From positions 95,515 through 159,514 of the IMG/VR virus record IMGVR_UViG_2974778117_000001: a DNA stretch of 64,000 bases, one strand, 5' to 3'. Under the pieces are notes generated by a model that ran no database searches, was not told where the DNA came from, and worked only from the letters and a program-made list of their open reading frames with translations. Positions 9,307-25,154 of this stretch are shown here, piece after piece. The first letter of the stretch is position 1. Every line of letters begins with the position of its first letter. Both the position numbers and the translations under genes were made by a program. Origin of the DNA: a virus (lineage: Duplodnaviria > Caudoviricetes).

Positions 9307-11986
9307 GTTTTACACGTTCTGTGAGAAAGTAGGGAGCAGAATCTATCACCGGTACGTGACAGCCGATGGTGAGAGAAAGCAAGAAGTGGTATCTGAAGTG
9401 CCTCTGGAACTATTTATGAAGTCCCGTGACGGTGAGGTCCGCTCGCTGTATGGCGACCGTCTGAAGAGGTTCCAGTTCAACAGCATCAGCGAAGCCGCCG
9501 ACTTCGAGAAGCGCATGGAGGGGGTCGAGCCGATCTTCGGACAGACTGACCCAGTCCAGCAGTTCATTTCACAGAAGTACAAGGGCAAGATCAAGTTTGA
9601 CTTCAACAAGTTCCGCATCCTCAACTTCGACATTGAAGTCCGGACTGACGGCTACGATGATGAAGACGAGGCGCAAGTCCGTCGCGTGTTCTCGAATGAA
9701 GCCGAGACCTGGACTGTCGGTGAGATTCGCAACTACGATGGTGCAGCGCAGTATGAAGTCTATGACCTCATGCACGATCGCTGGTATCCGATTGAGAGCT
9801 GTCCTCAGTTGATGGTCGGCGGCTTCCCGGAAGCGGATGAAGCGAAGTATGAGATCACATCCATTGCGATGAAGATGTTCGGCAAGGACAAGAAGATCAC
9901 CCTCGGTCAGAAGGACTATCAGCCGAAGGACAAGAATCAGATCTACACGCGATTCAACAGCGAGGCTGAACTGCTGCTGGAGTTCGTGAACATCGTGCGC
10001 ATGCTGGACCCGGACATCCTGACCGGGTGGAACATCGAAGAATTCGACATTCCGTATGTCGTTCATCGTCTGCAGAAGCTGCACGGCGAAGAGACGGCGA
10101 ATCGCCTCAGCCCGTTCCACAAGGACACGAAGAAGTGCCTGCAGCATTACATCGCTGACAAGGACAACGATATGCCGTCGTATCGCATCCTGGGTGTGAC
10201 GGTTCTGGACGGTCTCAAGCTGTTCAAGAAGTTCGTGCTCCGCAAGTACGAGAGCTATCGACTGGACTACATCGGTGAGTCGGTGGTCAAGGAACGCAAG
10301 ATCGACTACAGCGAGTACAACAACGATCTGAACAAGCTGTATATGATGGACTTCGACAAGTTCATCGCATACAACGAGAAGGACGTTGAGCTGGTCGAGA
10401 AGATCGACAAGAACAAGCAGTTGATCCGACTTGCGATCACCATGATCATGATGACCAAGTCCAAGTACCGAGACGTCATGGGTAAGGTCAAGTTGTGGGA
10501 CAACCTGATCTACAACATGCTCTTGGAAGACAACATCGTGATCCCTCCGGCGGTTCGTCGCAGATCGGAAGGTAAGATCATCGGTGCGTGGGTGAAAGAC
10601 CCGGTGGCAGGTAAGTACCGATACGTTGTGTCGCTCGACTTGACATCGCTGTATCCTTCGATCTGTATGATGTACAACATGTCGCCAGAAACCCTGGTCC
10701 GTGAGGAGATGGGAACCCTTGACTATGTGACACGTTTGGTCGGCGGTGAGGATCTTGCGGTTGACATGAAGGCGAAGGGCTATTGCATGGCGGCGAACGG
10801 TTCGGCTTACAGGCTGGACATTGTCGGCGTTCTACCTCGCGGAATGCGATACGTCTTCGACACGCGTCAAGACTACAAGAAGAAGATGAAGGACGTCAAG
10901 CAGAAGCGAGAGGACGTTCTGGCTGCTGGCGGCAAGAACACAGACCCGGAATACATCGAGTGGGATGAACTGGTGTCGGAGTTCAACGCGGCTCAGGAAG
11001 CAATGAAGGTGCTGGCAAACTCCGGTTACGGCGTGACGGCGCAGGACAGCTTCCGGTACTACAACCGCAGCATTGCCCAGGGTATCACCTTGACGGGTCA
11101 GGTGACCATTCAGACGGTGGTGCTCAAGACGAACGAGTACCTCAACAAGCGATTCGGGACAACTCGAGATTACGTCATCACAGCGGATACGGACTCAATG
11201 TATCTGGCTCTGGAGAACGTGCCGACGAATGCAACCGATGCAGCCGCTGCAATTGAAGAGCTTGACCAGTTTGTCGAGAAGGAGCTTCAGCCGTTCATCG
11301 ATCAGACCTTCCGCGAGTTGTCGGATCGGATGGGATGCCCGAAGAACATGATGGATATGAAGCGCGAAGCTCTCTCGGACGTCGGCATCTGGCGCGCCAA
11401 GAAGAACTACGTGCTGCGCGTTTGGGACATGGAAGGCGTCCGGTACGCGGAACCGGAAATGAAGATGATGGGTATCGAGACTGCCAAGAGCTCGACACCG
11501 ATGATCGTCCGCAAGGAGCTGGAAGAGTGTCTGAAGATCATGTGCTCCGGCACCGAGAAAGAACTTCAAGATGAGCTTGCCCGGTTCAAGAAGGTCTATT
11601 ACAATAGTGGAATCGAGGAGATTGCCAAGCCGCTCGGTGTCTCGGACCTGACCAGCTATTCACTCAATGACAAGCGAATCCCGTATCAGAGCAAGGCAGC
11701 GATCCTGCACAACAAGCTGATCCAAGAGAAGGGGCTGAGCAAGACCGTCGAGCGAATCAGAAACGGCAACAAGGTGAAGCTGATCCTGTTGAAGGAGCGT
11801 AACCCGCTCCGGAACAAGTACATTGCCTTCATCGGTGAGTTGCCGAAGGAGTTTGGTCTGGACGAGTATGTGGATTATGATGGTCAGTATGAATCGACCT
11901 TCATGAGTCCGGTGAAGTCGTTCACCGATCTGATCGGTTGGAAGACAGAACAGATCTCGAGCTTGGAAGATCTTTTCGGTTGGTAA
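9305..11986 (+). CDS. 43: gp43 family B DNA polymerase
   Basis: FDIEV, GWNIEEFD, YNEKDV exonuclease motifs; DLTSLYPS, KVLANSGYG, DTDS; C-terminal SLEDLFG clamp-binding peptide. Confidence 0.98.
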   Translation: MFYTFCEKVGSRIYHRYVTADGERKQEVVSEVPLELFMKSRDGEVRSLYGDRLKRFQFNSISEAADFEKRMEGVEPIFGQTDPVQQFISQKYKGKIKFDFNKFRILNFDIEVRTDGYDDEDEAQVRRVFSNEAETWTVGEIRNYDGAAQYEVYDLMHDRWYPIESCPQLMVGGFPEADEAKYEITSIAMKMFGKDKKITLGQKDYQPKDKNQIYTRFNSEAELLLEFVNIVRMLDPDILTGWNIEEFDIPYVVHRLQKLHGEETANRLSPFHKDTKKCLQHYIADKDNDMPSYRILGVTVLDGLKLFKKFVLRKYESYRLDYIGESVVKERKIDYSEYNNDLNKLYMMDFDKFIAYNEKDVELVEKIDKNKQLIRLAITMIMMTKSKYRDVMGKVKLWDNLIYNMLLEDNIVIPPAVRRRSEGKIIGAWVKDPVAGKYRYVVSLDLTSLYPSICMMYNMSPETLVREEMGTLDYVTRLVGGEDLAVDMKAKGYCMAANGSAYRLDIVGVLPRGMRYVFDTRQDYKKKMKDVKQKREDVLAAGGKNTDPEYIEWDELVSEFNAAQEAMKVLANSGYGVTAQDSFRYYNRSIAQGITLTGQVTIQTVVLKTNEYLNKRFGTTRDYVITADTDSMYLALENVPTNATDAAAAIEELDQFVEKELQPFIDQTFRELSDRMGCPKNMMDMKREALSDVGIWRAKKNYVLRVWDMEGVRYAEPEMKMMGIETAKSSTPMIVRKELEECLKIMCSGTEKELQDELARFKKVYYNSGIEEIAKPLGVSDLTSYSLNDKRIPYQSKAAILHNKLIQEKGLSKTVERIRNGNKVKLILLKERNPLRNKYIAFIGELPKEFGLDEYVDYDGQYESTFMSPVKSFTDLIGWKTEQISSLEDLFGW
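9411..9416 (-). promoter_or_regulatory. putative late promoter (TAAATA) for the holin
   Basis: TATTTA on + strand, about 105 nt upstream of the holin ATG. Confidence 0.5.
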
Positions 11987-13595: not shown

Positions 13596-13625
13596 ACTAT
13601 ATTCCACGTCAACCAAGGAAACAAT

Positions 13626-14314
13626 ATGGCATTGCAGAAACACAAGTGTGATCCGGCTCTCGGCGCTCGCGTCTTTGAGCACCTGAAGCAGAAGGGTTTG
13701 CACACCCCAGTCGTGGAAGAAGCTCTCTTCCAACATGAAGGCAGCAAGATCGACAAGATCGAAGCGCTGCAAACCCAGGTTCTGAACTGCTGGGTCTTGA
13801 CCTCTCCGATGACAGTCTGATCGAGACTCCCCGACGCATTGCCAAGATGTACGTCAGCGAGCTGTTCTGGGGCCTGCATCCGGATCACTTCCCGAAGTGT
13901 ACCACGGTCGAAAACAAGATGCGCTACGATGAAGTCGTCATCGAGAAGGCATCCGTGAAGTCGGTGTGTGAGCATCACTTCGTGTACTTCGGCACCAGCC
14001 ACCGCCCGGACCTGGGATGCTGGATCGCGTATGTCCCGAAGGAGAAGGTGCTTGGTCTGTCGAAGATCAATCGCATCGTCGAGTACTTCGCTCGTCGTCC
14101 GCAGATTCAGGAACGCCTGACCGAGCAAATCGCCGAGACCCTGAAGTTCATCCTGGAAACGGATGACGTCGCGGTCGTGATGAAGGGTCAGCACTTCTGT
14201 GTTCTGACTCGCGGTGTGGAAGACTCGGACGGTATGACCATCACCAGCGCGCTGCACGGTCGATTCCGTGACGAACTGCCGATGCGTCAGGAACTGATGA
14301 GTCTGGTACGATGA
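13626..14314 (+). CDS. folE: GTP cyclohydrolase I (apparent 1-nt deletion ~13785)
   Basis: DSLIETPRRIAKMY, SVCEHHF, GLSKINR, RRPQIQERL, HFCVLTRG. Confidence 0.95.
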
Positions 14315-14508
14315 CCGATCTCTCGATCAAGGTCGAGCAAGAGATGGTATATGCAAGTCCCCGGAAGCTGAGAGGTTTCCGGGTGACTCGCAGGAAAGGG
14401 AATCGGAAGTTCATCTTCCGCGTTCCATGGGTGATGGAAGAAGTGCAACCCATCCGCGCCTACTACTCAGGCAATTCCGCTCTGAGATCAATGCGCGTTA
14501 ACAACTGA
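14311..14508 (+). CDS. small basic hypothetical protein
   Basis: ATGA overlap with folE stop. Confidence 0.5.
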   Translation: MTDLSIKVEQEMVYASPRKLRGFRVTRRKGNRKFIFRVPWVMEEVQPIRAYYSGNSALRSMRVNN

Positions 14509-14527
14509 AATAACTGGAGATTTGAAA

Positions 14528-15778
14528 ATGAGCAAGATCAAAGTAGCTGTCGTTGGTGTTGGTAACTGCTTCTCGTCCCTGTATCAGGGTGTTGGCTACT
14601 ACAGCAACCGTCCCGATGAAGTGATCTCGGGCATCGCCCATGTGGACATTGGTGGCTACAAGGCTACTGATCTGGAGTTCGTCCTTGCTATCGACGTTGA
14701 TCACCGCAAGGTGGGGCAGTCGCTGAGTGACGCGATCTTCGCAGAACCGAACGTCGCGCGTGTGTTCCACACCGAGCCGGCTCCGGGCGCAAATCCGATT
14801 GTCAAGATGGGTGCTCGTCTGGATGGTGTCTCGACGTTCATGGAAACCGAACCGGCAAGCCGTGGCTTCCGCCCGGTCCCGACCGACGAGCCGACCGAAG
14901 CCGCCAAGGCGCGACTGGTTGAACACCTGCGTTCCAGCGGTGCGGACGTTCTTCTGAACTACCTGCCGGTCGGATCGAATCAGGCAACTGAGTTCTACGC
15001 TGAGTGTGCACTGGAAGCGGGCGTGAGCTTCATCAACAACATCCCGGTGCTGAACCTGAACCATCCGGATTGGGAAGACCGCTTCATCGACGCAGGCATT
15101 CCCTACATCGGTTCGGACATCAAGAGCCAGTTCGGCGCTTCGATCCTGAGCCAGATGCTCCAGGAGCTGGCGTTCGACCGCGGTATGGAAGTTGACTTCC
15201 ATCAGCAGCTGAACGTGGGTGGCAACACCGACTTCAACAACATGATGGTTCAGAGCCGTCTGCTGGATAAGAAGGTCTCCAAGGAGAACGTGATCCGTGC
15301 TCAGAATGACCTGCGAGACATCCCGGTCAATGAGGATGCACTGTTCGCCGGTCCGTCCACCTACATCCCGTACCTGAAGGACAACAAGGTCGCCTACTTC
15401 AACCTTCGCCTGCGCGGTTTCGGTGGCGCTCCGGTGGATGTGGACGTCAAGCTGTCGGTGCAGGATTCGGAGAACAGCGCGGGCGTCGTGATTGATGCGA
15501 TCCGATTCATCAAGGTGGCACGTGAGCTGGGCATTCGTGGTTGCCTGCGTGGACCGAGCGCGTTCACCCAGAAGTCGCCGCCGAAGCAGCTGACCATGGA
15601 AGAAGCTAAGTACGAGTGTGACGCACTGGCGAATCGCAAGCTGACCCCGATCACCAAGCGTCAGCTGACGAACCGGTCGGCAAAGGAATTCGCTCGTCAG
15701 GAGCTTGCCGAAGGCGGAATGGACTACTTGCGCGTGTTGGACAAGAAGCGCCAGTCGAATGCAGAGCGTGGAATTTAA
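14528..15778 (+). CDS. ino1: myo-inositol-1-phosphate synthase
   Basis: VAVVGVGNC Rossmann motif, NYLPVGS, DIKSQFGA, QLNVGGNTDF, DNKVA, LSVQDSENSAG, KSPP; GGAG RBS. Confidence 0.93.
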   Translation: MSKIKVAVVGVGNCFSSLYQGVGYYSNRPDEVISGIAHVDIGGYKATDLEFVLAIDVDHRKVGQSLSDAIFAEPNVARVFHTEPAPGANPIVKMGARLDGVSTFMETEPASRGFRPVPTDEPTEAAKARLVEHLRSSGADVLLNYLPVGSNQATEFYAECALEAGVSFINNIPVLNLNHPDWEDRFIDAGIPYIGSDIKSQFGASILSQMLQELAFDRGMEVDFHQQLNVGGNTDFNNMMVQSRLLDKKVSKENVIRAQNDLRDIPVNEDALFAGPSTYIPYLKDNKVAYFNLRLRGFGGAPVDVDVKLSVQDSENSAGVVIDAIRFIKVARELGIRGCLRGPSAFTQKSPPKQLTMEEAKYECDALANRKLTPITKRQLTNRSAKEFARQELAEGGMDYLRVLDKKRQSNAERGI

Positions 15779-15799
15779 CCTTTAGAATCAAGAGGTTAC

Positions 15800-15826
15800 G
15801 TTGAAGGGTCTTCGGACCCTTCAAAC
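15800..15826 (+). terminator. UUCG-capped stem-loop after ino1
   Basis: TTGAAGGGTC-TTCG-GACCCTTCAA; weak U tract. Confidence 0.6.
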
Positions 15827-15891
15827 GTCTTTACCCTTTGAAATCAAGTAGTTATCAAATTCCGCTTAAGAATTAGCCATGAGGGACTATA

Positions 15892-16263
15892 ATGAGAGCG
15901 CAACACTCCTTTGACATTGACGGCGTGATCAGCATTGGCATCCGCCCCAGCCCCGGAGCAATCATCATCACCGGGCGCAGCTATGAAGAACGTGCCGAAA
16001 CGGAAGCGTATCTGAAACACCTTGGCATCAGCAACGATGTCTTTTACAATCCTTTGAAGTGGTCGGAGAAGTCTCGGACCTCGTCGGGCGAGCACAAGGC
16101 GGAGATCATCAACCTGCAGGGAGTCACCCGTCATTTTGAGGATGACCCGGTACAGGCACAAGTGATCCGCGAACGCTGCCCCAATTGCTACGTTGTCGAG
16201 ATTGTCTCCGATCTGGTGGAGCTCGAGAACGTGCGTCATACCTTCACGGGAGAACCGAATTGA
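15892..16263 (+). CDS. small HAD-family phosphatase
   Basis: FDIDG (motif I), ITGR (II), K (III), FEDD (IV). Confidence 0.85.
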   Translation: MRAQHSFDIDGVISIGIRPSPGAIIITGRSYEERAETEAYLKHLGISNDVFYNPLKWSEKSRTSSGEHKAEIINLQGVTRHFEDDPVQAQVIRERCPNCYVVEIVSDLVELENVRHTFTGEPN

Positions 16264-17009
16264 GTAAGAAGATCCTGATCCTGTACAGTGGTGGCTTGGA
16301 TTCCATGATGATGGAGAAGCTGGCACAGTGGACCAACCCGACCGCCGAGATCACCTGCGTGTTCTATGAGCATGGTCAGGACAGTCTGGAAGCTGAGATT
16401 GCAGCGTTGCCGTGGTATGTCAAGCGTCGCAAGCTCGACTGGTTGGACGGAGAAGTGAAGGCAGTCCCCAAGAAGTCTGATCCGTTCGCGGGTGCGATCT
16501 ACATCCCGGGACGTAATCTGGTGTTCGCAGTCACCGCAGCGTCGCAGTTCCTCCCGGACGAGATCTGGATGGGAACTCTGTTCGATGAATGCAACGAGCA
16601 GGCAACCGATAAGAACAACATCTTCCTGGAGAAGACCAACGCGGTTCTCAAGTATGTCCTGAGTCCGTTCGGTAATCCGGTCGTCAAGTTCCCGTTCGTG
16701 GAGCGCGGCTGGACCAAGACTGATGCCCTGGGTTGGCTGCTTGCCAGAGGCGTTGTAAGTAAAGAGGACATTGCGAAGACCACTTCATGCTGGCACAATG
16801 ACGGTCTCCCTTGCGGTGAATGCAAGCAGTGTCTGAAGCGCGCACTGATCATGGATCAGTTCGATATCTATGAACACCATGCCGGACTCCACCCGCTCGA
16901 CCCGACCAACAAGTTCTGTGCTGATCTGATCGAACAGTATGAAGCATGTCTGGAACCGAACATTGACGAGCGCGAAGTCCAGCGATTGATCCGAAGCTGG
17001 AGAGCTTGA
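16260..17009 (+). CDS. queC: QueC-like 7-cyano-7-deazaguanine synthase
   Basis: LYSGGLDS PP-loop, HGQ, YIPGRNL, SCW..CGECKQC zinc site; TTG start with GGGAG RBS. Confidence 0.9.
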   Translation: MSKKILILYSGGLDSMMMEKLAQWTNPTAEITCVFYEHGQDSLEAEIAALPWYVKRRKLDWLDGEVKAVPKKSDPFAGAIYIPGRNLVFAVTAASQFLPDEIWMGTLFDECNEQATDKNNIFLEKTNAVLKYVLSPFGNPVVKFPFVERGWTKTDALGWLLARGVVSKEDIAKTTSCWHNDGLPCGECKQCLKRALIMDQFDIYEHHAGLHPLDPTNKFCADLIEQYEACLEPNIDEREVQRLIRSWRA

Positions 17010-18220
17010 TGAAGATTGGATACGAATACGTGATGTCGGGTCTAGGATACACCCGCATCAAGGGAACGCACCTGATTGATTGGACGCATCACAAGTTCGA
17101 GCGTGACTTCCATGATTCCAAGTTTGCGATCCTGTACAACGCATTCACAGAAGCAGAGTATGGACGTCGATTCAAGGACGTCCATTGCAACGTGTATGCC
17201 GACTCGGGCGGTCTGCAGATGATGACCCGAAACCTCGGAATCACGCCGGAACTGAAGGACAAGGTCTATCAGAACCAGTCCGACTGTTCGCAGTTCGCCA
17301 TGTGCTTTGACGAGATTCCTCTCCGCAAGGCAGAAGATAAGGGCAAGATCGGCAGCCAGCAGGGTCGCTTCTTTGATCGAACCCTGATCAAGGAGAAGGC
17401 AACCGAGACCGCGCTGAACATCCGTCGTCAGATCGAGCTCTTTGAGGAGACTGGCACGGCGGCGCGTCCGGTGGCAATTATCCAAGGCAACTGTGCCGAG
17501 ACGATGCTGGAATGGGCTGATGTGTTGTTCGATCAGGTCGGCGACAAGGCTGACAAGATCGCATCGGTGGCTATCTCCGGTATCTGCATTGGCAACAAGA
17601 CGATGGAGGAACTGGAACGCAGCTTTGTGTTCAGTCAGATCCATCGGAACTACAAGATCGATCACCTCCACTTGCTGGGAGTCGGATCGGTCAATCGTGT
17701 GTCACCGTTTGTGGTCTTCGACCGCTTGCTGGAACGAGACATCTTGATCAGCTATGATAGCACGTCGCACGTCCAGTCGACAACCTACGGCTATCACTTC
17801 TGGGAAGAAGGTCTCGTCAAGATCCAGAAGGGCTACTACCACAAGTGGGATGACATGGCGGCGCGTATCGCCGAGTTCTCGGAAGGCACGTTCGTTGTTG
17901 ATGGTCCGGAGCTGTACAAGCTCTGCAACACCAACATCAAGGGCATGACCGACGAACAGAAGGACAAGGTACGCGATGCATTGTTCATGATGGCGGCAAT
18001 TCAGGCATACAAGATGTCTGACTTCGTGGAACGGACATGCAAGGACTTCGAGAGCAGCCTGATCCATCACGATCAGCACTTGTGGCTCCCATTGCGAGCA
18101 CTTCACGATGATGTGTCGACGGTGCAGGACTTCAATCAGTGGCGTCGGGACTTCCAGCGCTACATCCCGACAAGTCGTGTATCTTCTTCGCATAACTCCT
18201 TGGATGACCTGTTCGGTTAA
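17009..18220 (+). CDS. dpdA: TGT-fold base-exchange enzyme, DpdA-like DNA 7-deazaguanine transglycosylase
   Basis: ADSGGLQ, FDEIP, IIQG, HLHLLGVG, SYDSTS; flanked by queC and queE; ends SLDDLFG. Confidence 0.85.
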   Translation: MKIGYEYVMSGLGYTRIKGTHLIDWTHHKFERDFHDSKFAILYNAFTEAEYGRRFKDVHCNVYADSGGLQMMTRNLGITPELKDKVYQNQSDCSQFAMCFDEIPLRKAEDKGKIGSQQGRFFDRTLIKEKATETALNIRRQIELFEETGTAARPVAIIQGNCAETMLEWADVLFDQVGDKADKIASVAISGICIGNKTMEELERSFVFSQIHRNYKIDHLHLLGVGSVNRVSPFVVFDRLLERDILISYDSTSHVQSTTYGYHFWEEGLVKIQKGYYHKWDDMAARIAEFSEGTFVVDGPELYKLCNTNIKGMTDEQKDKVRDALFMMAAIQAYKMSDFVERTCKDFESSLIHHDQHLWLPLRALHDDVSTVQDFNQWRRDFQRYIPTSRVSSSHNSLDDLFG

Positions 18221-18254
18221 GCGATAATCATAGAACGAAATAGGAGAGTACATC

Positions 18255-19147
18255 ATGGCAAAGTTTGAAGTATCCGAAGTGTTCATGTCGTTGGAAGGTG
18301 AGGCACAATTCACCTTCCATCCGACTGCATACATTCGGTTTGCACGGTGCAACCTGAGTTGCCCGTTTTCAACAACCCGGAACGTGAGAAGACGCCGACC
18401 GGGTATGCGCCGCTGACCTTCGACCCGAAGGATTACAGCAAGCTGGAAGAAATTCCGCTGATCACCAAGGGTTGCGATTCGCAGTATGCGGTGAACCCGA
18501 TCTTCTCTCACATGTGGAAGAAGCTGGAAGCGGACGAGCTGGTTGATGAGTTGCTCTCGGTGATTCCGGGTAACAAGCTGGTGTATGACACGGGTTTGCC
18601 GGTGATCGTGAGTCTGACTGGCGGTGAGCCGACGCTGAAGTGGAAGCAGCTTCCAGAGATCATGTTCCATGAGAAGATGAAGGATTGCAAGCACTTCTTG
18701 GTCGAGACCAATTGCGCCGTCCCATTCAAGGACGAGTTCATCAGTCAGATCCACAAGTGGCTCAACGAGGATGACAGTCGTCAGTGGACGTGGTCGAACA
18801 GTCCGAAGCTGAACTCCAGCGGTCACACCCGAACCGAGGCGATCAAGCCTGCGATTGCTCTGATGCAATCGGCGTTGTTCAAGTCCAACGCTGGTCAGAT
18901 CAATCAGTATTTCAAGTTCGTGGTAGACGGTTCGGAAGAAGACTACGCGGAAGTGAAAGAGGTCATGAAGATCTATCATGACGCTGGTCTGGCTCTGGAC
19001 ACTCCGATCTGGATCATGCCTCAGGCTTGCACGCAGGAACAGCAAGTGGAGCTGGCGCGATCAGTTGCACGTCGCTGCATGGTCGAAGGCTGGCTGTACT
19101 CACATCGTGTTCAGAATGACCTCTGGGGTAATGGAGTTGGCACTTGA
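18255..19147 (+). CDS. queE: QueE 7-carboxy-7-deazaguanine synthase, radical SAM (apparent 1-nt deletion ~18367)
   Basis: EVFMSLEGE, IRFARCNLSC...GCDS, TGGEP, VETN, SPKL, KFVV, IMP, HRVQ..LWGN. Confidence 0.92.
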
Positions 19148-19365
19148 TCACCGTAGAATTCATTGACGCGTTGATCGCGATCCACGGACGCAAGTCTGTC
19201 ATGCAAATTCTGGGCGAGGTGATCTACAATGATGACGTTTCATGAGTGGATGGCTCATCACGGTTACTGGGCGGGGCGGTGTGGTGCCGGAAAGTCTATG
19301 TATCAGGACATGTATGGCAAGTACTGCCGTGAGTGGCGTCAGAACAACCCAGCTTGAGGTAGCAG

Positions 19366-21214: not shown

Positions 21215-22453
21215 ATGGCAGCACCAACCTACTTGCCTGAGGCGATTGCTACCGCGATTGGCTGGGCACATCCGATCACAGGCGAACAGCTGGACGTCAC
21301 CAAGGGTCTTCCTGGCGCGATCAGCTACTACAAGCCGAATGCTCGCGGACAGTCTTTCATCGATCCAGCTGGCAGTGTCACAAGCCTGATCAACTTCATC
21401 AAGAAGGGTCCGCGTAAGGTCATCTTCACGATCCAAGCGAAGAAGGCGATCAAGAAAGTCGTGACCACATTCGGTGACGCGTCCGATCCGCTGACATCTG
21501 GAGCAACATTCCTTCACGTGTATCCGGATGATCCCGCAACCAAGACCTACTCTCTGTCTTCTGTTGTGACCTACAGCGACGACACTACAGAGACTGTCAC
21601 GCTGGAAGTTCAGATCCTGGCAGGCGAAGTTGCCGCGCCGGCAAATACCGCAGTACCAACTATCACAGGTACAGCACGAGTGGGGCAGGTTCTGACGGCT
21701 GGTGATGGTACCTGGACGGGCAATCCTGCTCCGACCTTCACATACGCTTGGTTCCGTGGGACCACAGCAATCTCTGGAGCCACCAGCAAGACCTACACTC
21801 TGGTTGCAGCTGATGCCGGCTCGACCGTGAAGGTTCGCGTGACTGGAACCAATTCCGAAGGCACAGCCAATGCCGAATCGGCTCCGACTGCAAGCGTGAC
21901 GCAAGCTCCAGCTAACACCGCTGTTCCGACAGTGACTGGTACGGCTCGCGTTGGTCAGACATTGACCGCCGCTCCGGGAACATGGACTGGCACACCAACT
22001 CCGACTTACACCTACCAGTGGCAGCGTGGCACAACCAACATCAGTGGTGCGACAAGCTCGACTTATGTTCTGGTTGCAGCTGACGCAGGGCAGACAGTTC
22101 GCGTGGTTGTGACCGGCACCAACTCGGCAGGCAACGCTTCGGCGAACAGCGCCAACACGGCTTCGGTGACTCAGACTCCAGCTAACACCGCTCTACCGAC
22201 CATCACCGGAACGGCTCAAGAAGGACAGGTTCTGACCTCGACCAACGGAACATGGACTGGCACACCAACACCGACCTACACACGTCAGTGGAAGGCAGGC
22301 GGAGTTGATATCGCTGGTGCGACGGCTCAGACCTACACTCCAGTGGCAGGCGACGTTGGCAAGACCATCACCGTTGCAGTCACAGGCACCAACAGCGCGG
22401 GTAATGCAACCGCAACGTCGGCAGCCACAGCAGCGGTTGTCGCGGCGGCATAA
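21215..22453 (+). CDS. Ig-like repeat virion protein (Hoc-like decoration protein)
   Basis: three ~90-aa repeats PANTA.PT.TGTA..GQ.LT...GTWTG.P.PT.T..W; Thr/Ala-rich; late promoter. Confidence 0.8.
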   Translation: MAAPTYLPEAIATAIGWAHPITGEQLDVTKGLPGAISYYKPNARGQSFIDPAGSVTSLINFIKKGPRKVIFTIQAKKAIKKVVTTFGDASDPLTSGATFLHVYPDDPATKTYSLSSVVTYSDDTTETVTLEVQILAGEVAAPANTAVPTITGTARVGQVLTAGDGTWTGNPAPTFTYAWFRGTTAISGATSKTYTLVAADAGSTVKVRVTGTNSEGTANAESAPTASVTQAPANTAVPTVTGTARVGQTLTAAPGTWTGTPTPTYTYQWQRGTTNISGATSSTYVLVAADAGQTVRVVVTGTNSAGNASANSANTASVTQTPANTALPTITGTAQEGQVLTSTNGTWTGTPTPTYTRQWKAGGVDIAGATAQTYTPVAGDVGKTITVAVTGTNSAGNATATSAATAAVVAAA

Positions 22454-22535: not shown

Positions 22536-23456
22536 ATGGGTGGTAATGTAGTGATCAATGGAATGTCCGCTCGCCGCATTGAAGTCGAGACTCTTGAGCA
22601 GCTGGTGGACCTGAATCATGAAGTCGCAATCTTGATGCATCGGTTGCAAATGGAACCGGGCTCTTACTTCCCGACTGGCAGCTACCGTGCAATGCTCGAG
22701 AATTTCAGCCGAGTCCATCATTCCAAGCCGACGCTGGGTGACGTGGACATTGCAGTACACAAGGATTCCAAGGGACACATCATGTCGATGCTGCCGAAGC
22801 TGGAAGCGATTGATGCAATCGCGGGGTGGAAGGTCTCAGGATCGAACATCATCGTCCTGACCAACACCGGAGAGCAGATCGATCTGGAACTGACCGATGG
22901 TAGCGCATGGTCGCTATGGATCCGACAGTCAGACATTGCCGATCTGGATTGCGGCATCAAGGGATTCGCCAACATCTTCCTCTTCCGAGCTCTGACCTCG
23001 CTGACTGTCAAGGACTTTCCGGGTCTTGGTGAGATGAACGAGTATGCGTTCAGCCTGAATGGACTCCGCCGCAAGGTCGAGATGAATGGCGCTGTCGCGG
23101 AGGTAATCCCATCATCCAAGGTCAAGCCGAACGACTACATCACCGATCCGGGTACGATCCTCCAGATCCTGTTGGCAGATCGTTGCTTCCAGCCGGTCTC
23201 CAAGATCATCCCGAGCGATGTGTGGGAAGTGTCCAGTTCGTTTGTGAAGCTGTGGGCGTTCGTGTGTAGCTGGATCAAGTCGAAGAGTGATCTGGATAAG
23301 ATCAGCAATGCCCTGTATGACCTGCTGTATAGCGACAAAGCACAAAGCCTGTATCGGGATGATCCCGAACGAGATGCACAAGAGAAGGACGCAATATGGA
23401 AAGAGTTCCAGCGCACCCTCATGATGAACAAGGCGTCCGTCGCCTATGAAGATTGA
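22536..23456 (+). CDS. Pol-beta-superfamily nucleotidyltransferase-like protein
   Basis: TGS...LGDVDIAV...QIDL (GS, DxD, third D). Confidence 0.7.
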   Translation: MGGNVVINGMSARRIEVETLEQLVDLNHEVAILMHRLQMEPGSYFPTGSYRAMLENFSRVHHSKPTLGDVDIAVHKDSKGHIMSMLPKLEAIDAIAGWKVSGSNIIVLTNTGEQIDLELTDGSAWSLWIRQSDIADLDCGIKGFANIFLFRALTSLTVKDFPGLGEMNEYAFSLNGLRRKVEMNGAVAEVIPSSKVKPNDYITDPGTILQILLADRCFQPVSKIIPSDVWEVSSSFVKLWAFVCSWIKSKSDLDKISNALYDLLYSDKAQSLYRDDPERDAQEKDAIWKEFQRTLMMNKASVAYED

Positions 23457-24388
23457 GGATCTAGACGCGATCCTCCGAGACAGAAGTTCCGTACCAAGAG
23501 AGTCAGCGCAAAGCGATTGGTTGTCTACACGAGCGGGTCACGGCAAGAGCTGATGGCCCAGCTCGGCAATGAGTTCGGCGGAGTCTTCTGTCCGAACCCT
23601 GATTCATACTCGACAGCCGGGTCAACAGACTATGGTTTCTTCAAACTGTATGCGAAGCCCGACAAAGGCGCGGGCGCGAAGGCGGCTGGAATCGACAATG
23701 AAGATCTCCTTGTCAAGGCCTTGAATAGATACACGACTGATTACAAGAAGGTGACGGTCACGTTTGAGGCGCTCAATATGAAGATCAATGTCGCCGATGT
23801 CAAGTTCGCTCGGCACTCCGGTGCAGACACGAAGGGACGCAAGAAGGCTGACGTTGTGCTCGAGACTTCATCCGGTGAGGTGCCGATCTCGGTCAAGAAG
23901 GATAAGGCGGAGATGTGGGAGTCGGCTGATTCCTACTGGTCGGCGAACACAGGCATGGTCATCAATCACCTGCTGAAGAAGGGTGAGATCACCATGGAGC
24001 CGAACAAGAACGTCTACAAGATCAAGCCGAGCGTTGCCATCGAGGCAACATCAGAGGAGAAGCGTGACGTTGTGTTTGGATCGGACCTTCTCGGCAAAGG
24101 GTTCGTAGCTCAGAAGTCATATAGTGAATCAGACTTTTCCTTTAACTTGAAGGCAAAAGAGCTTAAAATCAATTGTACGCACTTGATCCAGTCTGAGGAG
24201 GACGTTCACGGCGACCACGATGTGTGGTTCCTGATTCGCCCGGACGCGACAAGGAGATCTGTGAAAGAGTGGCCAGGTGTTCGCACGCTGGCGGTTTATC
24301 AAACCCGACTGACCTCTGGCGTCAGGCGATATGAGAGGAGTGTGTTCAATGGATGCAAGTCCAAGAGTGGGAATCAAAACGTAGCTGA
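23446..24388 (+). CDS. PD-(D/E)XK nuclease-like protein (reconstructed; deletions ~23480 and ~24378)
   Basis: E..L, KKADVVL, PISVKK pattern; ATG overlaps the end of the upstream gene. Confidence 0.6.
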
Positions 24389-25154
24389 TCTGGGGCAGAC
24401 GAGGTATGAAAGCCTGTTTGTCCCTAGGAACGCGGACAACACCAAGTTCCAGTTCCGCTACATGAACGCCAAGATCAAGGTTGATGGTATCCCTTTGCGG
24501 TTTGGATTTGACGCGTCGGCTACCCCGTTCGTGGAAACCAGCCGCAGCGGATTGATCTATCACCCCTCGTCGTTCGTTCTGCATGCGAAGAATAAGCCGG
24601 ATTCCAATCCACGCAAGCCGTGGATGGTCGCAACCGCATACAAGTATCAGGATCTGGCTACACGGATTCTCAATCTGCTGCACGCCGTTCCGTTGCACAA
24701 GCGATACCGGAACCTGAAGGTCCACGCCGAGTGCTTGCCGCGATGCTTCCAGGATGCAAATGGTCGGATCGTTACCTTGTCTTACACTCTGCCAGAAGGT
24801 GCTGAACTGGTCATGTACCCGTATCAGGTGGAAGGCTCCCTTCGCGCTCCGATGGTGGTAGCTGAGGAGATTCTCCTGCGATCAACGTCGTTCCCATACG
24901 CTGATAGGCAGAGGCATAGGAAGGAGATCTTGATTGAGAATGATGCAATCACGTTGCCACTGATCGAGTCGGAGACTCAGCCTTACCCATCTGAACTGGC
25001 ACACGATATCCTTTCCGGAGTGAATGTGTATACACCTTACGGTCCAATTGAAGGTGTCATCATCCCTACAGAATACGGCGACGCGAAGGTTCAGAGTCAG
25101 ATCTATAAGGAAGAGCGCGCTAAGCTGAAGATCAAGCTGGTGGTGGAAGAATGA
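24349..25154 (+). CDS. ligase-like (KxDG) nucleotidyltransferase-fold protein (fused to the upstream ORF in the ORF track, probably by a deletion)
   Basis: GAGGAG RBS 8 nt before ATG 24349; KVDG..LRFG, HAEC, IEGVII resemble covalent nucleotidyltransferase motifs I, III and IV. Confidence 0.55.

Follow-up and report, generated by a model that had tools for sequence, protein, structure and literature searches.

The 64-kb window analysed here (64,000 nucleotides, positions 95,515 to 159,514 of the IMG/VR virus record IMGVR_UViG_2974778117_000001) is the terminal part of a 159,514-bp phage genome recovered as one contig. It carries on its plus strand a cluster of genes for the 7-deazaguanine modification of DNA, into which a homologue of myo-inositol-1-phosphate synthase (MIPS) and a small phosphatase of the haloacid dehalogenase (HAD) type are inserted; the order is folE, a 65-aa open reading frame (ORF), MIPS, the 123-aa HAD, a divergent QueC-like protein that we name QueC*, DpdA2 and queE (Table 1). 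Profile and structure matches bear out the gene order and coordinates (folE - ino1 - HAD - queC - dpdA - queE) given in a preliminary description of this DNA, and the overlap that it had reported between the HAD stop and the queC start is seen as TTGA at 16260-16263, where the TGA of the former (16261-16263) runs into a TTG start codon (16260-16262) of the latter. The deazaguanine cluster of this type of phage has already been catalogued, and the new part is its link with inositol. Two observations carry this link: MIPS and HAD occur together within DNA-modification clusters of several kinds, and QueC* and MIPS travel together.

Table 1. Features of the deazaguanine cluster and the inserted inositol genes (positions in the window).
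Feature	Position	Strand	Evidence
folE, GTP cyclohydrolase I	13626-14314	+	PF01227 E 2e-42; NF006824 194 bits
65-aa ORF	14311-14508	+	Annotated as hypothetical in Mendera and Ps15; matched in Moby
MIPS, myo-inositol-1-phosphate (inositol-3-phosphate) synthase homologue	14522-15778	+	PF01658, TIGR03450, 1GR0, phrog_33138
GC-rich hairpin with UUCG loop, between MIPS and HAD	15798-15828	+	RNA fold -30.6 kcal/mol, z -2.4
Promoter-like TTAAGA-16-TATAAT, 3' of the hairpin	15866-15893	+	Promoter scan
HAD phosphatase, capless, 123 aa	15892-16263	+	phrog_415 (polynucleotide kinase, phosphatase part) E 2e-15
QueC*, divergent QueC-like PP-loop ATPase	16260-17009	+	PF06508 40.6 bits
DpdA2-type DNA guanine transglycosylase, long form	17006-18220	+	tblastn, TGT-type motifs
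queE-like radical SAM CDG synthase	18255-19147	+	phrog_2076 E 5e-44; TIGR03365 E 2.5e-6
TGT, tRNA-guanine transglycosylase; SAM, S-adenosylmethionine; CDG, 7-carboxy-7-deazaguanine.

Positions 13600-19200 share 97-99% identity with six phages of Stenotrophomonas maltophilia from the genus Menderavirus, namely YB07, BUCT608, Mendera, Marzo, Ps15 and Moby. In a published phylogeny, the Xanthomonas phages X1 and BUDD form the sister group of this genus (PMC13384950). Two genes of the cluster are broken in the assembly: folE is read as two ORFs (13626-13820 and 13847-14314), having lost a T at 13782 by comparison with YB07, Mendera and Ps15, and queE lacks a T at 18365 by the same comparison. Both are intact in the relatives, folE as a 690-nt coding sequence in Mendera, Ps15 and YB07 and queE as one of 894 nt. 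Decay of the pathway through these frameshifts was considered and rejected, because about 40 similar lone 1-nt deletions (for example at 2128, 5594, 13782, 18365, 32084 and 32513) are dispersed throughout the 64 kb as compared with YB07, with almost no lone insertions, and break RNase H, an essential gene, and further genes as well. The breaks in folE and queE are thus assembly errors with the signature of a low-accuracy assembly, and the ORF calls of this record therefore need comparison with its relatives. As for the 65-aa ORF, it has no match in Pfam, PHROG or NCBIfam and, among viral MIPS loci, is present only in that of Moby.

FolE, QueD and QueE make CDG, the carboxyl of which QueC activates with ATP and then lets react with ammonia to give 7-amido-7-deazaguanine (ADG) and then 7-cyano-7-deazaguanine (preQ0). 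The gene for QueD lies elsewhere in the same genome, about 90 kb from the cluster (G000:C1:18755-19144), so that, judged by homology, the deazaguanine gene set is complete, with folE, queE, the QueC-like gene and dpdA2 in the window and queD at a distance. The DpdA2 protein is 32-36% identical to those of the Vibrio phages nt-1, VH7D and KVP40 (tblastn, E 1e-32 to 1e-37); with the experimentally tested enzymes of nt-1 and VH7D, it shares 32.5-33.8% identity over residues 7-260 (E 3e-32 to 5e-35), and it matches its counterparts in X1, BUDD and phage BUCT-ZZ01 over its full length. A sequence search against the PDB was empty. The TGT-type motifs YADSGGLQ, HLLGVGS and SYDSTSH are invariant in the DpdA2 alignment, and the enzyme would be expected to exchange guanine in the phage DNA for a 7-deazaguanine. 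Homologues of DpdA2, FolE and QueE exist in Vibrio, Xanthomonas, Synechococcus, Acidovorax and Pseudomonas phages. The C-terminus of the window protein, NSLDDLFG (18190-18220), recalls that of the phage DNA polymerase, SSLEDLFGW (11960-11986); the tails are QQSLEELFG in X1 and ASLDSFFD in BUCT-ZZ01. This tail common to DpdA2 and the polymerase resembles a clamp-binding motif, which suggests that base exchange may be tethered to the replisome.

The absence of a queF or ArcS tailoring gene, claimed in the preliminary description for the window, extends to the whole genome, in which neither QueF, nor an ArcS-type or other known tailoring gene, nor a GT4 glycosyltransferase was found. Searches of the 159.5-kb genome were equally negative for the 5-hydroxymethyldeoxyuridine (5-hmdU) DNA kinase (PF18723), the amino-acid:DNA transferase (PF18724) and P-loop kinase 3, the first two of which mark thymine hypermodification in other phages; the PF18723 and PF18724 searches recovered their targets in Ralstonia phage RP13 (E 2e-48) and Caulobacter phage Cr30 (E 2e-54). 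Three ORFs downstream of the cluster (21215-22453, 22536-23456 and 23517-25154) were tried as thymine-hypermodification enzymes and rejected, as they match neither the transferase (ADDT) nor the kinase (HMUDK). Deazaguanine is therefore the sole DNA-modification system of this genome that is available to partner MIPS and HAD.

The window MIPS scores 77.1 bits against PF01658 (gathering cut-off 27) and, over the full length, 307.7 bits against TIGR03450, below the equivalog cut-off of 638; by these scores it is best described as a member of the family and not as an equivalog of the actinobacterial enzyme. It also matches phrog_33138 with 840 bits. Its best solved structure is Ino1 of Mycobacterium tuberculosis (1GR0, E 1e-85, residues 4-364), followed by Ari2 (6K96, E 2e-53). 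In the 1GR0 alignment, the N-terminal NAD-binding GxGxxxS block VAVVGVGNCFSSL aligns with VAIVGVGNCASSL, and the protein retains the blocks NVGGNxDF, KKxSK and DSxNSAG. The protein would thus be predicted to turn glucose-6-phosphate into inositol-3-phosphate. In cells, inositol is made by Ino1 together with an inositol monophosphatase, for example in the first steps of mycothiol synthesis (Ino1, MshA and a phosphatase). The viral enzyme, about half identical to M. tuberculosis Ino1 as estimated by eye, is likewise paired with a phosphatase; its partner, however, is a capless HAD of 123 aa of the Pnkp type and not a member of the inositol monophosphatase family, and its setting is viral DNA modification.

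This partner displays the motifs DxDGV, ITGR, HK and EDDP, with D8, D10, T27, K69 and D84-D85 invariant or nearly so in 32 sequences, and is modelled as a capless HAD Rossmannoid fold with a predicted local distance difference test score (pLDDT) of 91. In a wide search with VIA-align, the best folds were the 3'-phosphatase domains of Pnkp (4xrp_A, Z 11.3; 5uj0_B, Z 11.1; 1ltq_A, Z 10.3), with root-mean-square deviations of 2.0-2.6 over 101-106 residues (2.0 over 101 for 4xrp_A), as compared with Z values of at most 9.3 for generic small-molecule HADs and of 7-9 for many others. Foldseek returned for the same model only generic Rossmann-like matches with E>1e-3. Capless members of the HAD superfamily tend to have macromolecular substrates. 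Lack of a cap and the Pnkp-like fold together suggest that the HAD may remove phosphate from a group already attached to nucleic acid.

Outside Menderavirus, the only cultured phages that carry MIPS are Cr30 and RP13 (42-43% identity), and in both a homologue of the 123-aa HAD lies at most about 0.7 kb downstream (identity 45% and 41%, respectively), with the four HAD motifs invariant. A scan of IMG/VR yielded at least 329 viral contigs with MIPS; among the best 80 of these, 70 have a HAD homologue just downstream. MIPS and HAD thus form a conserved and widespread viral gene pair. To place this pair in its context, all ORFs of the 80 viral loci and of the window, Cr30 and RP13 (83 loci) were clustered, and the most frequent neighbours were annotated. 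In 70 of the 83, the 5-hmdU DNA kinase, the amino-acid:DNA transferase or que genes lie within about 10 kb of MIPS, in three settings. In the first (setting A, about 49 loci), a ThyA-like protein, DUF6378, a dUTPase-like protein and a 353-aa protein are followed by MIPS, HAD and the 5-hmdU DNA kinase, sometimes with an FkbM methyltransferase between the last two. The second (setting B, 15 loci including Cr30 and RP13) comprises the amino-acid:DNA transferase, MIPS, HAD and P-loop nucleotide kinase 3. In the third (setting C: the window, Moby and four IMG/VR loci), MIPS stands beside the QueC-like gene, with folE, queE and a DpdA-like gene nearby. The pair adjoins an ATP-using activating enzyme in all three. 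The transferase is 1 kb from MIPS in Cr30 and the 5-hmdU kinase 3 kb from MIPS in RP13; neither QueC nor DpdA2 was found in these two phages. The genome of RP13 is heavily hypermodified at thymine and hard to sequence (PMC12686479).

The three settings are intermixed in the MIPS tree, where one clade (Shimodaira-Hasegawa-like approximate likelihood ratio test, SH-aLRT, 96) unites the window and Moby with a further que locus (L010), a transferase locus (L009) and a kinase locus (L011), and the que label requires at least three changes on well-supported branches. The tree indicates that the pair has moved between pyrimidine and purine modification clusters, a mobility that would be hard to explain unless it served DNA modification.

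Two observations on the pyrimidine loci deserve mention in their own right. In Cr30 (L006, 5732-10257), the amino-acid:DNA transferase gp123 (PF18724, E 1e-52) precedes MIPS (gp121) and HAD (gp118), and gp122 has a weak match to a TET-associated glycosyltransferase (E 8.5e-4). In the 5-hmdU kinase loci, the protein of about 353 aa directly upstream of MIPS (phrog_13881; L077, 8892-9953, and 56 others) is the commonest neighbour of MIPS without an identification; it bears a GDSHS motif and has no Pfam match. As a remote amino-acid:DNA transferase it was rejected (hhalign probability 0.2%); it may be the transferase that is missing from the 5-hmdU kinase system, and the genome of the window encodes no homologue.

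QueC* is a QueC-family protein by sequence and predicted fold, its divergence notwithstanding. It exceeds the PF06508 cut-off (40.6 bits against 22) and falls far below the TIGR00364 equivalog cut-off (37.1 bits against 150.3). A plain sequence search against the PDB was empty, a profile search gave QueC structures 2PG3 and 3BL5 as the best matches, and the best folds for its model were, in this order, 3BL5, 2PG3 and Cap9 (9NTO). The ATP loop (LYSGGLDS) and the zinc motif C-x8-C-x2-C-x2-C (C-WHNDGLP-C-GE-C-KQ-C) are kept. Canonical QueC enzymes share the signature YxQxHxxE, VPxRN and YPDC, with Y35, R99 and Y131 required in the E. coli enzyme (PMC13329287). In an alignment at about 20% identity, QueC* departs from this signature, with H at the equivalent of Y35 and ATDK(N) in place of YPDC, and keeps PGRN. 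No homologue was detected outside Menderavirus among 50,697 phage records (E<1e-4), nor did scanning 185,579 species genomes by motif reveal relatives, a weak negative given that the method depends on short motifs; as far as tested, the QueC* clade thus appears to be confined to viruses.

A scan of IMG/VR with the QueC* alignment yielded 78 loci. MIPS is directly upstream of the QueC-like gene in 19 of the 25 loci whose protein is at least 39% identical to that of the window. In the tree, QueC* belongs to a clade of 22 rows (SH-aLRT 98, stem length 0.99), 17 of which have MIPS directly upstream; it is absent in four, and one contig is cut. Among viral QueC-likes outside this clade, the same arrangement occurs in only 2 of 40. 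The preliminary description had named a lack of linkage between phage ino1 and que or dpd genes as one of the results that would refute its proposal; this check did not refute it. The flanks are shuffled from locus to locus, as in folE-dpdA2-MIPS-HAD-QueC*, queD-queE-MIPS-methyltransferase-QueC*-folE-dpdA-like and dpdA2-MIPS-HAD-QueC*-queE-queD-folE; what remains contiguous is MIPS, HAD or a methyltransferase, and QueC*. One family of neighbours in some of these loci (f57) proved to be a DpdA2-like protein of the TGT fold (hhalign probability 98.2%), and most examined QueC* loci therefore show a DpdA2 or DpdA2-like gene in the stretch of DNA covered.

The SAM methyltransferases were seen directly 5' of QueC* in four loci (L096, 7401-7997; L103, 7390-8013; L112, 7291-8001; L115, 7219-8007), and such a gene replaces HAD in some loci and the whole MIPS-HAD pair in others. 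A related locus, L110, has a methyltransferase instead of MIPS upstream of its QueC-like gene, as do the two examined loci of the clade that are devoid of MIPS. In L026 (11691-12896), directly following MIPS and a methyltransferase-like gene, a SIS (phosphosugar isomerase-like) domain is fused to the N-terminus of the QueC-like protein; in this predicted fusion, a QueC-family ATPase is physically joined to a domain of the kind that binds sugar phosphates.

Comparison with the sister group indicates that MIPS and HAD occupy what is predicted to be a variable tailoring slot between folE and dpdA2. Phage X1 shares the frame of the window, namely DNA polymerase, UvsX and folE on one side and dpdA2, queE and primase-helicase on the other; its slot contains a PP-loop ATPase resembling 3'-phosphoadenosine-5'-phosphosulfate (PAPS) reductase, two genes without assigned function and a GT4 glycosyltransferase. 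In BUDD, too, the slot is taken up by a PP-loop ATPase other than QueC* together with a GT4 glycosyltransferase, in Synechococcus phage BUCT-ZZ01 such glycosyltransferases stand on either side of the long DpdA2, and in locus L099 one lies between dpdA2 and MIPS. Given the glycosyltransferases of X1, BUCT-ZZ01 and L099, clusters with a long-form DpdA2 are frequently accompanied by sugar-type enzymes. The suggestion in the preliminary description that the inositol genes sit at the place of tailoring genes fits with these sugar-type genes, and in known deazaguanine clusters this place is taken by QueF, Gat, ArcS or DpdL/M/N. The loci of X1 (L091, 4125-8209) and BUCT-ZZ01 (L092, 4668-8825), with long DpdA2 flanked by GT4 enzymes and, in X1, a PP-loop ATPase at the place of QueC, are themselves candidates for the synthesis of glycosylated 7-deazaguanines, which to our knowledge have not been described before.

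We propose, with about an even chance of being right, that MIPS, HAD and QueC* form a tailoring cassette that adds a cyclitol to the 7-deazaguanine base in a DpdA2-type pathway. FolE, the distant QueD and QueE would supply CDG, and MIPS would supply inositol phosphate from glucose-6-phosphate. QueC* would use ATP, as QueC does, to activate the CDG carboxyl at position 7, and would then hand the activated carboxyl to inositol or inositol phosphate rather than to ammonia; the CDG on which it acts could be free or already within DNA. DpdA2 would exchange guanine in the phage DNA, probably at the replication fork, and the Pnkp-like HAD would strip the phosphate, possibly only once the group sits on the DNA. 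The product would be a 7-deazaguanine made bulky by its cyclitol, which would shield the DNA from nucleases, and the CDG-inositol conjugate may be one among several such products. The putative inositol-decorated deazaguanine put forward in the preliminary description is thus partly supported by the embedding of MIPS and HAD in three DNA-modification settings.

The substrate, linkage and order of steps given above are inferred, and two known systems offer parallels. Cap9 of type IV CBASS (cyclic oligonucleotide-based antiphage signalling system) and QatC of the Qat defence system catalyse the ATP-dependent carboxy-deazaguanylation of a protein N-terminus (PMC13329287). These proteins share with QueC* the QueC fold and would share with it the activation of CDG and its transfer to a nucleophile other than ammonia; since they pass activated CDG to a protein amine, the QueC scaffold evidently tolerates such nucleophiles. 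They are, however, bacterial defence proteins with a protein acceptor, whereas QueC* is viral, lies in a DNA-modification cluster and has an acceptor that is putative. The second parallel is with thymidine hypermodification, which in phages ViI, M6, PhiW-14 and SP10 relies on a 5-hmdU DNA kinase and an amino-acid:DNA transferase (Lee 2022, as cited in PMC12686479). The logic is alike, in that a substituent of the base is activated with ATP and then attacked by a small nucleophile, and MIPS and HAD adjoin these enzymes in about 64 viral loci and in Cr30 and RP13. Here, in contrast, the genome has neither kinase nor transferase; MIPS and HAD are partnered with a purine pathway, in which a PP-loop ATPase would be the activator.

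The closest characterized purine system is that of the Vibrio phages nt-1 and VH7D. FolE, QueD, QueE, a QueC-family enzyme and DpdA2 are found in the window phage as well; its DpdA2 differs in its greater length (long form, 404 aa) and in a tail resembling a clamp-binding motif, and its QueC belongs to a divergent clade that, as far as tested, is virus-only. The DpdA2 of VH7D accepts preQ1 and preQ0 for insertion and, with lower efficiency, CDG (Cui 2023, PMC10516641). Stenotrophomonas phage IME-SM1 was catalogued with DpdA2 (AKO61693), FolE, QueD, QueE and QueC (Hutinet 2019, PMC6884629, Supplementary Data 1) and without QueF, Gat-QueC or ArcS, falling in the predicted group with DpdA2 and the deoxynucleoside of preQ0 (dPreQ0) (Hutinet 2019, PMC6884629). 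The authors of the Ps15 genome read the que genes as tRNA-queuosine genes and, separately, judged MIPS to be probably derived from bacteria (PMC9025141). In the paper library searched, only the Ps15 paper and unrelated mentions came up, and none of them proposed that inositol is connected with deazaguanine, with the hypermodification of thymidine or with the modification of phage DNA.

Several points weigh against a cyclitol-adding cassette. The Vibrio phage DpdA2 clusters work without MIPS, an ester to the carboxyl would be chemically labile, and the TGT-fold pocket of DpdA2 may be unable to accept a bulky base. The literature search found no chemical analysis of Menderavirus DNA. We know of no enzyme that has been shown to couple inositol and deazaguanine, and of no deazaguanine derivative that bears a cyclitol. 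The changes at the equivalents of Y35 and Y131 (H for the former, TDKN for YPDC) were considered as proof of a new function of QueC* and rejected as such, because they are common to many viral QueC-likes without a link to MIPS and most other viral QueC-likes of que clusters are also non-canonical; their occurrence in QueC* is thus no proof of a novel activity. MIPS is missing from four loci of the QueC* clade, and in both of those examined a SAM methyltransferase is directly upstream instead. Every QueC*-MIPS locus comes from T4-like phages, so that co-occurrence may in part be due to common descent, and both the MIPS and the QueC-like trees are quick searches with midpoint rooting. Finally, the hairpin and the promoter-like site, both within the 113-nt gap between MIPS and HAD, weaken the picture of a single transcript, and the cluster is not necessarily transcribed as one unit. 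The Ps15 authors annotated a terminator at the position of the hairpin, which may be a transcript boundary or an RNA-stability element within the cluster.

The strongest competitor, which we consider unlikely though by no means negligible, is an ordinary dPreQ0 pathway in which QueC* is a fast-evolving canonical preQ0 synthase, DpdA2 inserts preQ0, and MIPS and HAD are chance passengers in a hyperplastic region of early genes, where they form a separate auxiliary metabolic module that makes free inositol for an unrelated use. The placement of IME-SM1 in the DpdA2/preQ0 group (Hutinet 2019, PMC6884629) agrees with this, as do the SGGxDS loop, PxRN and zinc motif retained in QueC*, the view of the Ps15 authors that MIPS is a bacterial gene gained by horizontal transfer (PMC9025141), the separation of MIPS from the downstream genes by hairpin and promoter-like site, and the presence of the pair without que genes in Cr30 and RP13. 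Chance, however, leaves unexplained why 70 of the 83 loci lie among enzymes of DNA-base modification in several arrangements, and why MIPS stands upstream in 17 of the 22 members of one QueC clade despite shuffled flanks; nor does it account for a HAD that resembles a polynucleotide phosphatase rather than an inositol monophosphatase.

Alternatively, MIPS and HAD may serve DNA modification away from the deazaguanine side chain. The cyclitol or its phosphate would then be attached to a different base, to the sugar-phosphate backbone or to a group that an unrecognized enzyme derives from preQ0, or would serve the modification enzymes as cofactor or regulator. A common role is attractive for a pair that accompanies 5-hmdU kinase, amino-acid:DNA transferase and que systems alike, the Menderavirus cluster has no recognizable dedicated transferase, and the 65-aa ORF and several ORFs nearby are without assigned function. 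This explanation is nonetheless distinctly improbable: the tight adjacency of MIPS, (HAD) and QueC* points to a QueC-like step, and the genome lacks thymine-hypermodification enzymes and GT4 glycosyltransferases. It could also be that the MIPS-like enzyme makes a different cyclitol, such as a five-membered one as Ari2 does; the group attached would then be something other than inositol. The place of Ari2 as second-best solved relative and the TIGR03450 score below the equivalog cut-off speak for this, but the much stronger, full-length match to the true Ino1, 1GR0, with its signature blocks kept, makes it very improbable. Scarcely credible is the proposal in the Ps15 paper that the cluster serves to raise queuosine in the tRNA of host or phage and not to modify DNA (PMC9025141): although some records label the 404-aa protein 'queuine tRNA-ribosyltransferase' and the phage has many tRNA genes, this protein is a DpdA2, Vibrio phage members of which insert preQ0 or preQ1 into DNA, its SL(E/D)DLFG tail is that of the DNA polymerase, there is no QueF in the genome (QueA, QueG and QueH were not searched for there), and QueA, QueG and QueH occurred in none of the viruses surveyed by Hutinet 2019 (PMC6884629).

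Going one step beyond the cyclitol-adding cassette, it is tempting to speculate, more tentatively and with the balance leaning against so complete a picture, that Menderavirus DNA has a hitherto undescribed purine hypermodification, a 7-deazaguanine with myo-inositol or a methylated or phosphorylated cyclitol on the side chain derived from its C7 carboxyl, built by a QueC-family ligase that takes inositol phosphate instead of ammonia and completed by a DNA-directed HAD, and that MIPS and HAD are a portable kit for thymine, hydroxymethylcytosine and guanine pathways. About ten Menderavirus phages as well as Cr30 and RP13 are in culture, so that the idea is directly testable, and its thymine version can be tested in Cr30. 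Hypermodified bases govern the escape of phages from restriction enzymes, CRISPR and DNA glycosylases, account for the poor sequencing of some phage genomes and are tools toward nuclease-resistant DNA. If the proposal is true, QueC-family enzymes would be able to ligate CDG to small-molecule acceptors, and a portable module for the supply of nucleophiles would be common to pyrimidine and purine hypermodification. Cyclitol-bearing bases would then constitute a new chemical class of natural DNA modification and, in the Menderavirus phages, the first bulky sugar-like decoration on a 7-deazapurine.

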